Below are positions 10,752 through 15,645 of a stretch of DNA of 64,000 bases, one piece after another. Below the pieces are notes generated by a model. The model had not been told where the DNA came from, did not search any database, and was given only the letters and a program-made list of their open reading frames with translations. The translations under genes were made by a program, and so were the position numbers. The stretch is taken from contig CAVUWV010000011.1 in the NCBI GenBank assembly GCA_963745075.1, positions 64,001 through 128,000 on the forward strand, given 5' to 3'. The stretch comes from Candidatus Hydrogenedentota bacterium (GTDB lineage: Bacteria > Hydrogenedentota > Hydrogenedentia > Hydrogenedentales > SLHB01). Within the stretch, counting starts at the first letter, position 1. Every line of letters starts with the position of its first letter.

Positions 10752-11135
10752 CTACACGTGACCGGCGGAACTTTGCGACTCTCCGCTGAGTCCCCCCGGA
10801 CTCGCCATCGGTCCGGATAGTTCCTGGGAACCGGCTCCGGGCGCTGCCGCCGAACGGTTCTGCGCCATTTCTTTCAATGCTTTTCCCGGCTTGAAGGTCC
10901 CGACCCGTTTGGCCGGAATCGGTACTTCCTCACCAGTTCGCGGGTTGCGTCCGATTCGGGCGTCGCGCGTTTTGACTTCGAACACGCCGAAGTTGCGGAT
11001 CTCGAGCCGATTTCCTTCGGACAACAACTGCACGACGCAATCCAACGTTGCCTGGACCACATCGGAGACTTCATTCTGCGTGTAGCCGAGCCGTTCGGCC
11101 ACGTCCACGACCAGTTCCCGTTTTGTCACACTCAT
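10752..11135 (-). CDS. Integration host factor / HU family DNA-binding protein
   Basis: TKRELV, EIRNFGVFEVKTRDARIGRNPRTGEEV, FKPGK. Confidence 0.92.
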   Translation of the reverse strand: MSVTKRELVVDVAERLGYTQNEVSDVVQATLDCVVQLLSEGNRLEIRNFGVFEVKTRDARIGRNPRTGEEVPIPAKRVGTFKPGKALKEMAQNRSAAAPGAGSQELSGPMASPGGLSGESQSSAGHV

Positions 11136-11784
11136 GATTCTCCCGACTCCACCATTGGCGACACCATACCACGGCCGCCGCGTTGTTGCGCGGCCGGTTC
11201 ACCCCCGTCGACATTAGCCCATCAAATCGTGCCAAGCCTTGCAGTACATCTCGCTGATTGGATTGTCCGTCAACATCAAGCACCGCAACGATGATTGCGA
11301 TCACGATGACGATGATCAGATTCCTGGTTCCTTTGGACATCCCGGCGGACTTGATTTCAGGTTGTGCGCTGCCGACATATACTTTTTCGCCGGCTTCGGC
11401 GCGGGTCTTCTTGTCTTCGATTCCGCCGAGGGTTTCGTTGATCGAGATGAACGCCCGGTGCCATTCATTCTGGAGCTTCTTGATAGCGACCTCTGATTGG
11501 GAATAGATCGCTTCGAGGTTGGTGGCTCCCGAGATGATATTCATGGTGTTCGAGTCAAACTTATAATCGGAGCCCAAACCCTCCTTGAGCACCTGATGCT
11601 CGCGCGCCAGTTTGCTCTTAATCTTGAGAAACTGGTTCTCGAGCTGCGCCTTGTTCACCCCCGGGCTCGGATAGGCGCTCAGAATCTGGTTGAACAACAG
11701 CCAGTCGTTCATGAACTCCTGGCACATCTGAATGTTGCGGTTGAGGGCTTCGATCGTCTTGAGTTGCTTCTTATTTTGGGCCAT
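11071..11784 (-). CDS. Hypothetical helical protein with C-terminal membrane anchor (3' end possibly frameshifted)
   Basis: Long ORF with coiled-coil character and IIVIVIAIIVAV TM segment. As read it overlaps the IHF gene start by 65 bp. Confidence 0.65.
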   Translation of the reverse strand: MAQNKKQLKTIEALNRNIQMCQEFMNDWLLFNQILSAYPSPGVNKAQLENQFLKIKSKLAREHQVLKEGLGSDYKFDSNTMNIISGATNLEAIYSQSEVAIKKLQNEWHRAFISINETLGGIEDKKTRAEAGEKVYVGSAQPEIKSAGMSKGTRNLIIVIVIAIIVAVLDVDGQSNQRDVLQGLARFDGLMSTGVNRPRNNAAAVVWCRQWWSRENHECDKTGTGRGRGRTARLHAE

Positions 11785-11938: not shown

Positions 11939-12504
<566 letters not shown>

Positions 12505-12508
<4 letters not shown>

Positions 12509-13986
12509 GATTCCAGCCCTTTCTCTGCAAACTCGACCGCTCGGAACAACGCCTTGGCCTTGTTGACGGTTTCCTCGAATTCCCGCTCGGGCACGCTGTC
12601 GTAGACGATGCCGGCCCCGGCCTGCACATATGCGATATGGTCTTTCAGGATCATCGTGCGGATGATGATGCAGGTGTCCATGTCCCCGCTGAAACTGATG
12701 TACCCGCACCCGCCGGAATAAGGGCCGCGCCGGAGCGGTTCCAGTTCGTCAATGATTTCCATGGCCCGAATTTTCGGCGCGCCGCTTACCGTACCCATGG
12801 GGAAAGTCGCGCGCAGGGCCTCGTAAGCGTCCGCGTCGTCCTTCAACGTCCCCTCGACCTCGCTCACAATATGCATGACGTGCGAATAGCGCTCGATGGT
12901 CATCATCCGGCTGGGGTGTACCGTGCCGGGCGTGCTGACCCGGCCCACGTCGTTGCGTCCGAGATCGACCAGCATGACGTGCTCCGCGACCTCCTTTTCG
13001 TCCGCCAGGAGATCCTTTTCCAGAGCTAGGTCCTCCTCGACCGTCGTGCCGCGGGGACGCGTCCCCGCGATGGGGCGGACCATGCAGCGGCGGCCGGTGA
13101 CCTGGGTCATGACTTCGGGGCTCGACCCGACAAGCGTGAAATCCGGGTAGCGCACCAAGGTCATATACGGGGAAGGATTGATGCACCGCAGGGAGCGGTA
13201 CAGATTGATGGGGCTGGCGTAGACCTTCCGTTCAAATCGCTGCGACAGGACCACCTGGAAGACGTCCCCGGCGCAGATGTACTCTTTGGCTTTCTTCACC
13301 GCATCGCAGAAACCCTCGCGCGTAAAACTGGACTTCACTTCCGTGTCCGGTTCCCCTGAATGGATACGTTCCGTGCTGACGATCAGGGGCTGCTTCAGCG
13401 TGTCGTTGAGTTCGTGAATCTTCCGGACCGCGTCGTTATACGCCGCGACGGCGTCGTCTTGAACGTGGGCGTTGGACACGATCTTCAACCGGTTATTGAC
13501 ATGGTCGAAGATGAGGATGGTATCCGTGATCATGAAGTACAGGTCGGGGAGGTTCAGCGTGTCGGGATTCTCGTCGGGGAGCTTTTCGAAGAAACGGACC
13601 TGATCGTAGGACATGTAGCCCACGGCGCCGCCGTGAAACTTCGGCACGCCCTCCACCGCGACGGGCGTGTATTGGGCCATGAGTTTCCGCAGTTCGTCGA
13701 GGGGTTGCTCCGATTCCATCGATTTGTCCTGGCCGTCGCGCACGATCGTGACAGCTTTCCCCTTGGAGCGGAACACGATGGACGGGTTCGCGCCCAGAAA
13801 CGAGTAGCGGCCGATGGAGTCGGCCCGCTCCACGCTTTCCAGTAGAAAGGAGTAGGGTTGGTCTTTTGAAATCTTCATGTATGCCGTAACGGGAGTTTCG
13901 AGGTCCGCGACCACATCGCGGTACACCGGGACCAGGGAGCCCGGTTTCGCGATGCGCTGAAACTCCTCCAGTGTCGGGTGAATCAT
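12505..13986 (-). CDS. trpE: Anthranilate synthase component I
   Basis: [55 protein letters not shown]. Confidence 0.93.
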
Positions 13987-14016: not shown

Positions 14017-14400
14017 TCACGAAGTGGCCACGCCGTCGCCGTCCAACGTGACCGAACCGTCAAAGTCCACCTTGCGGTAGAAACAACTCGTCTCGTTGGT
14101 GTGGCAGGTCGGCCCCACGGGGTCGCATTTCAGCAGTAGCGCGTCGGCGTCGCAGTCCGTGCGGATTTCGAGGACGTGCAACACGTTGCCGGAAGTTTCT
14201 CCCTTGCGCCACAGCTTCTGGCGCGAACGAGACCAAAAACAGGCCTGCTTTTCACGCAAGGTGACCTCCAACGCTTCAAGGTTCATGTAGCCGACCATCA
14301 ATACCTGCCCGGATTCGTAATGCTGGACCACGGCGACAACAAGCCCCTTATCGTCCAGCTTGATCGTATCGGTCAGGGTTCTCGAATTCTCGGCGTTCAT
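14017..14400 (-). CDS. hisI: Phosphoribosyl-AMP cyclohydrolase
   Basis: VLMVGYMN, WSRSRQKLWRKGETSGN, DCDADALL, GPTCHTNETSCFY. GAGAGG RBS before ATG 14400. Confidence 0.93.
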   Translation of the reverse strand: MNAENSRTLTDTIKLDDKGLVVAVVQHYESGQVLMVGYMNLEALEVTLREKQACFWSRSRQKLWRKGETSGNVLHVLEIRTDCDADALLLKCDPVGPTCHTNETSCFYRKVDFDGSVTLDGDGVATS

Positions 14401-14548
14401 GACATTCCTCTCCACGTGCGTTGCGGGCTCGGAAGACCCTTCTATTTCCCTCTCGCGAAACCGGTTGCAGCAGCGATCGCGGAAGGCGAACGAGGCCGTA
14501 TCGCGATTTCGAAAGTCGGGCAAACAAGAATACGAAACAGGAATAGAT

Positions 14549-14602
14549 TCAGGAATGGGTATAGTGACGCCATCGGTGGTGGGAAAGCGAATGTGCCGGC
14601 AT
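14549..14602 (-). CDS. Putative His/Trp leader (attenuator) peptide MPAHSLSHHRWRHYTHS
   Basis: Minus strand GGAGGACTCGTG ATG CCG GCA CAT TCG CTT TCC CAC CAC CGA TGG CGT CAC TAT ACC CAT TCC TGA, about 150 nt upstream of hisI. Confidence 0.75.
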   Translation of the reverse strand: MPAHSLSHHRWRHYTHS

Positions 14603-14742
14603 CACGAGTCCTCCAAGGGCGCGGTGCACACTGACACCGCAATCAACGTCTAATGCACTATCGCACAGAGTATGCGCACGTTTCAAGTAGTGGGCTGAGC
14701 TGAATTTGCTCGCCCCTCGGTCGATGTGGACGTGATGGACGA

Positions 14743-15645
14743 TTATGGGCCGGATGCGGGCTTCTCGTTGTCCTCGGCGGGGGATTCCTGGTCCGCCAGG
14801 GAGTCGAAAGACGTGTCTTCGTCGGAGGAAGGTTCCGAATCCAGTTCGATGGGTTCCGATTCCGCTTTGGGCAGGGCGTCGTCCGCGTCCCAGGCCACGG
14901 CCAGTTCCGGTTCGTCATCGACATGGCCGGTGAGGGATTGCTCCTCTTCTTCGGCGGCTTTGACGGACTCCTCGTAGGTCACGAGATCTTCGGAATCAGG
15001 ACGTGGGGCCGGTTCCGGAACAAGCGCCTCATCGGCCGTCATGGGTTCGTGGACGGATTGCCGTGCGGGCGCCGCAATCTCGGCCGCAACAGGCGGACTC
15101 TGCATTTCCGCCGCCGGCTGCGCCGCGCTTTCCGTATTGACAATATTTACCGACACCTCGCCAATTTCTTCGGCCCCGATTACGCGCCGGGCCAACTCGT
15201 CCAGGTAGGTTTTCAACTGTGTGGAAGTCTCGCGGACACTCGCGTCCGCGGGATTCAAGAGATGCACGTCGGCATGGACGTTGGCTTTGTCAGCCGCCTT
15301 GGTTGGAGTGAGGTGAACCGTCCCTTTCTTTACGACGGGAATCTTGGTGAATGTCTTGTTCAGCGTGGTCGCGATGGGATCAAGCTGGATCGTCACGGGC
15401 CCGGTATCGTCGTTAAATCGTAGTTCCCGTGACCGCCGCCGCCGGTTTCCCAAAGGTAACAGGGCGAAGATGGCCAGTGCGGCGGCGACACATCCGATGG
15501 CGATTCGAAGCATGGGATTGGGTTGCGGAAGCTGAGCGACGATTGTCTGGTAAAGGCCGCTCAAGGAAAACACGGCGATCGCCGCACCGCCCGCGAGGAG
15601 CGCAATGCACGCCAGCTTCTGAATAATCGTCTGGAGGATTCGCAT
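14743..15645 (-). CDS. Membrane protein, AmaP/Asp23-like domain with acidic disordered tail
   Basis: Two N-terminal TM helices, then GPVTIQLDPI... alpha/beta domain and a D/E-rich C-terminus. Lies downstream of accC. Confidence 0.55.
   Translation of the reverse strand: MRILQTIIQKLACIALLAGGAAIAVFSLSGLYQTIVAQLPQPNPMLRIAIGCVAAALAIFALLPLGNRRRRSRELRFNDDTGPVTIQLDPIATTLNKTFTKIPVVKKGTVHLTPTKAADKANVHADVHLLNPADASVRETSTQLKTYLDELARRVIGAEEIGEVSVNIVNTESAAQPAAEMQSPPVAAEIAAPARQSVHEPMTADEALVPEPAPRPDSEDLVTYEESVKAAEEEEQSLTGHVDDEPELAVAWDADDALPKAESEPIELDSEPSSDEDTSFDSLADQESPAEDNEKPASGP

Follow-up and report, generated by a model that had tools for sequence, protein, structure and literature searches.

Sequence analysis of the window, i.e. 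the whole 64,000-nt stretch of Candidatus Hydrogenedentota DNA considered here, revealed a minus-strand operon in which the histidine biosynthesis gene hisI is followed by trpE and trpG and preceded by a short leader open reading frame (ORF). The features distinguished at this locus, in order of transcription, are:

14686-14657, minus strand: sigma-70-type promoter TTGAAA-N18-GATAGT with an extended TG (sequence match)
14614-14610, minus strand: Shine-Dalgarno (SD) sequence GGAGG of the leader, 7 nt before the ATG at 14602
14597-14605, minus strand: 5′ arm GUG AUG CCG of a predicted helix, including the leader start codon (averaged pairing and covariation)
14602-14549, minus strand: leader ORF of 17 codons, MPAHSLSHHRWRHYTHS followed by a stop (translation; homologs in 105/115 loci)
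14570-14575, minus strand: putative control core CGA-UGG, Arg10-Trp11 (conservation across upstream windows)
14564-14572, minus strand: 3′ arm UGG CGU CAC of the predicted helix, Trp-Arg-His (averaged pairing and covariation)
14509-14548, minus strand: C/U-rich, G-poor tract after the leader stop, a candidate rut site (pyrimidine fraction 0.725)
14017-14400, minus strand: hisI, phosphoribosyl-AMP cyclohydrolase (NCBIfam NF000768, above cut-off)
12505-13986, minus strand: trpE, anthranilate synthase component I (NCBIfam TIGR00564, above cut-off)
11939-12508, minus strand: trpG/pabA, glutamine amidotransferase (NCBIfam TIGR00566, above cut-off)

The mixed hisI-trpE-trpG gene order described in the first-pass annotation of this region was confirmed, all three genes being identified by NCBIfam models. 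There is one hisI match in the whole genome, i.e. the gene is single-copy, and its closest relatives are mostly labelled Candidatus Hydrogenedentota. The same annotation had pointed to a GGAGG ribosome-binding site and a 17-codon ORF with five His codons (one tandem pair) and a Trp codon, ending about 150 nt before hisI. These elements are read in the sequence as claimed, with His at codons 4, 8, 9, 13 and 16, Trp at codon 11, and 148 nt between the leader stop and the hisI ATG (14400). Among 3011 ATG ORFs of 10-30 codons led by a ribosome-binding site in this genome, the leader ORF is alone in containing at least five His codons. The proposed promoter likewise holds up: it is the single instance of such a site in 14350-14800, where 0.1 is expected from shuffles, and the TTGAAA-18-GATAGT site is kept in 6/6 genomes of the genus. 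No leader family of Rfam matched the window leader up to E = 10, and the predicted fold of the whole 261-nt leader is no better than that of shuffled sequences (z -0.32).

Upstream of the promoter, on the same strand, lies a gene (14743-15645) for a membrane-anchor protein that resembles AmaP (match below cut-off) and carries a long acidic tail. This amaP-like gene ends an efp-accB-accC cluster, which is situated upstream of the leader in many relatives. Directly after trpG there is a 237-aa minus-strand ORF (11071-11784) with no NCBIfam or Pfam match, and beyond it an IHF/HU-like gene and tatC-like and tatB-like ORFs, the last two recognized by inspection.

Genes encoding TrpE were found in 130 of the 135 Ca. 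Hydrogenedentota genomes, and the upstream DNA was examined for 124 trpE loci, six other matches having no gene start. A script picked the leader in 107 loci; a further leader, in which WW replaces RW, was recognized by eye. A homologous leader precedes trpE in 105 of the 115 loci with at least 300 nt upstream and is absent from the remaining 10; it was found in 13 families, and none was found in families f6, f14 and f15. The first-pass annotation had tied its reading to conservation of the ribosome-binding site and of the His and Trp codons in related genomes. In the upstream regions compared, a homologous leader stands at these 105 of 115 loci and the Trp codon is invariant, while the His part did not fare as well, the number of His codons varying from 0 to 5 even though they are enriched in frame.

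Across the leader homologs a G/A peak stands at the same distance from the start, matching the SD. The ATG lies ten codons before Trp in 64/107 leaders and the stops are in frame. Codons 2-9 vary freely, and Trp is followed by 0 to 9 further codons, namely six in 61/107 leaders and none, with an immediate stop, in 11/107. By these signals the leader is a conserved, translated-looking gene that is real across this uncultured phylum.

A few homologs depart from this form. At loci L020, L021 and L028 and in family f13 the leaders end in RW-stop and are without a clear ATG or SD. In L020 the leader frame starts with an ATG that shares bases with the stop codon of hisF, which suggests translational coupling from hisF into the leader.

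The commonest gene order is hisF-leader-hisI-trpE, with hisF upstream in 73/114 loci. Leaders preceded by hisF usually stand mid-operon, and only 9/55 have a promoter-like site of their own. Such sites were found for 13/15 leaders preceded by amaP and 15/24 preceded by other genes (28/39 together), where about 5 in total are expected from shuffles. In the window genome hisF has moved away and the promoter stands before the leader. In 22 of the picked loci (20 in family f11, plus genomes G019 and G030) the operon has no hisI and trpE directly follows the leader; none of the four relocated hisI copies that were fetched is preceded by a leader ORF with an SD. Since the leader stays with trpE where hisI has relocated, it appears to be first of all a trpE (Trp) leader. 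In six hisI loci from outside the Hydrogenedentota, no trpE match occurs within 3 kb. A metagenome scan for a candidate Poribacteria leader motif returned 36 loci, none of which adjoins hisI or trpE.

The relocated hisI of G019 (locus L126) is a diverged copy. The end of the gene before it seems to resemble TrpA, so this hisI may again follow a trp gene. Loss of the leader between hisF and hisI was seen in several lineages, i.e. at loci L012, L023, L033, L035 and L036 (G010, G028, G126, G124 and G125), and in two of the leader-loss lineages the hisF-hisI gap holds inverted-repeat-like DNA.

The script used to pick leaders favoured CGATGG, and the hexamers were therefore also counted without selection. 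In this count CGATGG occurs in 101/118 upstream windows, compared with 25 for CGCTGG, 12 for CGTTGG and 11 for CGGTGG. Trp is codon 11 in 69/107 leaders. TGG is found 133 times in the leader frame against 6 and 5 times in the other two, one in-frame TGG per leader being due to selection, and additional Trp codons are enriched as well (2.6% vs 0.9% expected), with WW or WWW variants in family f11. Most peptides (73 of 99 distinct ones) contain a single Trp codon, for which the model in PMC1183508 would predict low sensitivity. The preceding codon, CGA, makes up 11.7% of Arg codons. No tRNA-Arg(UCG) was found in the genome, so CGA would be read by wobble, and the three CGA bases show no covariation with any partner, for which reason CGA looks like a constraint at the codon level.

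TrpR, TRAP and T-box elements were not found in the genome (89.7% complete), nor was a Trp leader found for trpDCFB, which leaves the hisI-trpE leader as the only Trp-responsive element found. Given the invariant Arg-Trp core, and a leader that follows trpE rather than hisI, the Trp sensing claimed in the first-pass annotation is well sustained: the leader very probably senses tryptophan.

Averaged pairing over the 107 leaders gave one conserved helix, which joins the start region GUG AUG CC with UGG CGU CAC. Covariation was scored in 32 of the 42 leaders with Trp11 and a six-codon tail: 80% of the cells pair, and changes on both sides number 21, compared with 9.2 ± 2.9 in shuffles, of which 0/500 reach 21, a control that ignores relatedness; a slide of the register by +3 scores similar covariation with only 56% of cells paired. 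RNAalifold returned the same register, at a consensus energy of only -0.39 kcal/mol. The second codon past Trp changes together with the triplet that precedes the AUG, in the combinations GUG/CAC, GCG/CGC and GGU/ACC. The two arms form a more stable duplex within their own locus than across families (-12.0 vs -9.4 kcal/mol), with 38/96 in the top decile, and AUG and SD are both buried in 57/97 native leaders, compared with 27-43 in chimeras and 29-34 in shuffles. The helix is strong in family f1 (mean duplex -16.8 kcal/mol) and weak or absent in f10, f11 and f13 (about -6.5 kcal/mol). These predictions support a covarying helix that pairs the Trp segment with the leader's own start codon, often reaching the SD.

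An intrinsic terminator is the defining feature of trpL and hisL attenuators. By likening the leader to these, the first-pass annotation implied a terminator/antiterminator output, and this is the part that has to be given up. No GC hairpin with a U-run was found in the window, terminator-like hairpins are not enriched in the homologs (29/107 vs 23.5 expected), and the Rfam search gave no match. A Leu leader of the same genome, described below, does possess a perfect terminator, so the missing one here is not a failure of detection. As for an antiterminator, averaged pairing yielded only the one conserved helix, and a 2:3-like duplex is weak (15/96 in the top decile).

Several other outputs were considered and rejected. 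A long hairpin with its base abutting a U-run gave 2.99 vs 2.75 U per 8 nt and 15/91 cases. A translational switch at the hisI or trpE SD found no favour in the predicted accessibility, which in the stalled state, relative to the free one, rises in 11 of 96 loci and falls in 10. The out-of-frame AUG within CGAUGG does not behave as the start of a coupling ORF, its frames being distributed 36/38/28 with 5/102 fused, and 16/102 stopping near the next start, compared with 40/107 for the control frame. The downstream SD does not covary with the post-stop tract, and no conserved pairing of this SD was seen, either with the tract (9/87 and 10/96 in the top decile) or with the Trp segment (15/96). 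In the window itself, the leader end and the hisI SD are complementary over 7 bp.

The window genome also contains a long G+C-rich hairpin in the distal spacer (14504-14431, minus strand). In the full-length fold, 12 bp can form between the flank of this hairpin and the leader SD; no such pairing emerged as conserved in the homologs.

What is conserved behind the leader is base composition. The window tract ranks in the top 0.7% of 1552 same-strand gaps of the genome by pyrimidine fraction, and the post-stop tract has a pyrimidine fraction of at least 0.65 in 80% of the 107 homologs, compared with 5% of the background (the 1552 gaps). On average the tract has a pyrimidine fraction of 0.70, a C-over-G skew of 0.35 and 0.23 YC dimers per nt (vs 0.14). 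The spacer is weakly structured (z about -0.4), and a rho gene is present in the genome (above cut-off). The predicted openness of the tract is alike in the free and stalled states (0.50 vs 0.51). The geometry for Rho is imperfect, since in leaders with the common six-codon tail the post-stop tract would lie beyond the reach of a ribosome stalled at Trp11. As no terminator and no SD switch were found, and as the C/U-rich tract is conserved and rho present, Rho-dependent attenuation would by exclusion be the most likely output step, and we favour it with moderate confidence. Translational or polarity control is an unlikely output, and RNA decay and weak hairpin-assisted termination are each slightly less likely than that.

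Leader-peptide control of trpE is textbook biology. We propose, at about an even level of confidence, that a trpL-like ribosome-sensing leader attenuates hisI-trpE-trpG mainly according to Trp supply and does so without an intrinsic terminator. A ribosome initiating at the leader AUG would meet CGA-UGG at codons 10-11, as the conservation of these codons suggests. When Trp-tRNA is scarce it would stall at UGG, possibly aided by the preceding wobble-read CGA, by analogy with known trpL leaders. Once a ribosome has translated the leader to its end and left, the Trp segment would pair with the leader start codon, often as far as the SD, in the helix indicated by covariation. This helix would block re-initiation and leave the transcript ribosome-free; Rho, the output favoured by exclusion, would then load on the C/U-rich tract behind the stop and terminate transcription before or within hisI. 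A stalled ribosome would keep the helix open and shorten the free RNA, allowing read-through. The His codons would be partly structural and at most modulate the response. The apparent classical Leu attenuator of the same genome would place ribosome-mediated attenuation within its repertoire.

The His codons give rise to a competing explanation, already put forward in the first-pass annotation, i.e. that the peptide is a true dual His/Trp sensor. A stall at a His codon in or just after the helix region would then keep the leader occupied as a stall at Trp does, and the genome's only hisI would be protected from shut-off when Trp is plentiful and His is short. Over the 99 distinct peptides, His codons number 198 in the leader frame, compared with 23 and 36 in the two alternative frames. 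His accounts for 15.3% of leader codons, whereas base composition predicts 4.1% and the proteome has 2.5%. When the count was restricted to the unpaired loop and to a single leader for each genus, 38 His codons were found where 12.7 are expected (0/1000 shuffles), with both CAU and CAC in use, and the loop counts by frame, again with one leader per genus, are 36, 2.5 and 8.5. His codons are spread over many leader positions, and the Leu leader of the same genome has only one in 28 codons. Judging from these frame counts, the in-frame His enrichment goes beyond structural needs and is selected across the phylum; its loop component is left unexplained by a reading based on Trp only.

The evidence on an association with hisI is mixed. 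Leaders linked to hisI contain on average 2.2 His codons (n = 79) and those without it 1.15 (n = 20), or 2.0 vs 1.4 per genus; however, this difference represents only three independent lineages (counted on a quick tree of 88 rows), and one of them, G019, has three His codons. The difference sits after Trp, at paired or pairing-adjacent positions, where base pairing with the triplet before the AUG accounts for the His at the second codon past Trp, and the loop has an equal share of His in the two groups (11.8% with hisI vs 12.3% without). Furthermore, 22 of the 79 hisI-linked leaders have no His codon or one, and only 14 have a tandem HH. PMC8079986 describes three His in the 18 residues of Streptomyces lividans TrpL1, before a monocistronic trpE. 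In the genome studied here hisG, hisA, hisB, hisD and hisF lie elsewhere without a His-rich leader, so that there would be little gain in bringing only hisI under His control. No recognizable leader precedes trpD, hisD, hisB, hisF, hisA, hisG, aroF, ilvB or the full-length leuA.

The His count per leader ranges from 0 to 5, and the five of the window genome are the top of this range; the earlier reader thus saw the most favourable case. What stands of the His-sensing claim is that in-frame His codons are selected; the variable count, the structural role of one His and the equal loop His in leaders without hisI tell against the rest. A dual sensor is a tentative explanation that we consider less likely than not. 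The fuller proposal, in which His or Trp stalling holds open a start-burying hairpin and so gates Rho termination of a hybrid operon, phylum-wide and often mid-operon, is rather doubtful.

Concerning the histidine pathway as a whole, the genome carries hisG, hisI, a hisA-like gene, hisF, hisB, hisC and hisD, which are distributed among several contigs. HisE (PF01503) had no match in it (89.7% complete), and a non-orthologous HisE is possible.

Another explanation holds that the leader responds to its peptide sequence or to elongation speed, and not to Trp-tRNA charging, either as an arrest peptide with R-W-R at a fixed tunnel depth or as a sensor of Arg supply or translation stress through slow CGA in an Arg-rich context. 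The prevalent position of Trp at codon 11, the invariance of CGA whose bases covary with no partner, and the enrichment of Arg in leaders (16% vs 9.5%) would fit, and TnaC and SpeFL are described in PMC12360218 as using ligand-induced arrest that shields a rut site. On the other hand, codons 2-9 are free, the tail is anything from 0 to 9 codons long, and RW is replaced by WW in some genomes; an arrest induced by Trp would switch a biosynthetic operon the wrong way, and the helix offers an RNA reason for the spacing. The trpL of Pseudomonas is also Arg-rich with Trp near codons 10-12, and substitutions of its Trp codons abolished miaA-dependent derepression, according to PMC13434334. This explanation is very unlikely. 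It is less likely still that the conserved segment is non-regulatory, i.e. a chance ORF or a protein-binding DNA or RNA site (the partly palindromic CGATGG) readable as Arg-Trp: this would suit the lack of an Rfam match, the unremarkable fold of the 261-nt leader and a core hexamer conserved at the nucleotide level, but not the SD and ATG in frame at a fixed codon distance (64/107) with stops in frame, nor the in-frame excess of TGG, nor the 12-mer core, which has one other copy in the genome, outside short leader ORFs.

In trpL and hisL, departure of the ribosome allows a helix containing the control codons to form, and the proposed Trp-sensing leader resembles them in this respect. The leaders of Escherichia coli and Salmonella likewise comprise an ORF with cognate codons before a biosynthetic operon (PMC1183508). 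The leader described here differs in having no terminator/antiterminator pair and no Rfam match, in a conserved helix that joins the control codons to the leader's own start codon, and in a single Trp with scattered His codons instead of the tandem Trp or His run of trpL and hisL.

The closest leaders in sequence are the RWRWRA leaders of P. aeruginosa and trpL2 of S. lividans. P. aeruginosa trpL1 and trpL2 are short leaders before trpE with Trp near codons 10-12 in an Arg-rich RWR context, and their Trp codons were shown to be regulatory; they have two Trp codons, CGU or CGC before Trp and no hisI, whereas the leaders described here have mostly one Trp, preceded by CGA (PMC13434334). In S. 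lividans, the one Trp of trpL2 stands before an Arg, and this leader likewise has no terminator with a U-tract, while trpL1 has three His beside its Trp codons. Unlike the present leaders, the transcripts are leaderless, trpL2 controls trpS, and trpL1 has an intrinsic terminator before its monocistronic trpE (PMC8079986).

Regulatory uORFs that act through Rho, i.e. tnaC, speFL, cruR, mgtL and corL, share with this locus a pyrimidine-rich tract, the lack of an intrinsic terminator and, in the mechanism proposed here, ribosome occupancy as the switch (PMC12360218). They answer to free ligand, metal or Mg2+, whereas the signal here would be starvation at a sense codon, with Rho as the presumed output. 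The table of that Rho review, as available to us, lists no Trp-starvation uORF acting via Rho. Mycobacterial polycysteine sORFs are also amino-acid-sensing uORFs without a terminator, and Rho dependence was initially predicted for these Cys leaders on account of their polyY tracts (PMC1262725). One of them, Ms5788A, was later shown to work by pairing of its control codons with the downstream SD (10.1101/834739), which demonstrates that a Rho prediction can be wrong; conserved pairing of that kind was not found in the leaders studied here. In the open-access literature we found no description of this leader.

The leader is best filed as a mostly single-Trp, start-sequestering, terminator-less form of trpL. 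It departs from textbook control of trpE in its usually single Trp after an invariant CGA, in the predicted helix that sequesters its own start and in having no intrinsic terminator. The homologs add about 100 natural variants of an unannotated regulatory gene from an uncultured phylum, and the loci include cases in which hisI or the leader was naturally gained or lost. Terminator-less leaders of this kind escape both terminator-based searches and Rfam. If His sensing were true, a single-copy gene residing in the attenuated operon of another pathway would be protected by the addition of its own control codons, and if the dual reading were true, two biosynthetic families would be joined under one terminator-less attenuator that senses starvation for two amino acids.

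Outside the window, the same genome contains an unannotated Leu-rich leader (locus L273; G000:C21:97868-97782, minus strand) of 28 codons, including the stretch LLLPLLLL. It is followed by a 12-bp GC hairpin with U7 and precedes a short LeuA-like gene, for which a match of about 375 aa was found (best hits 2-isopropylmalate synthase, below cut-off). By its sequence, the L273 leader looks like a classical leucine attenuator.
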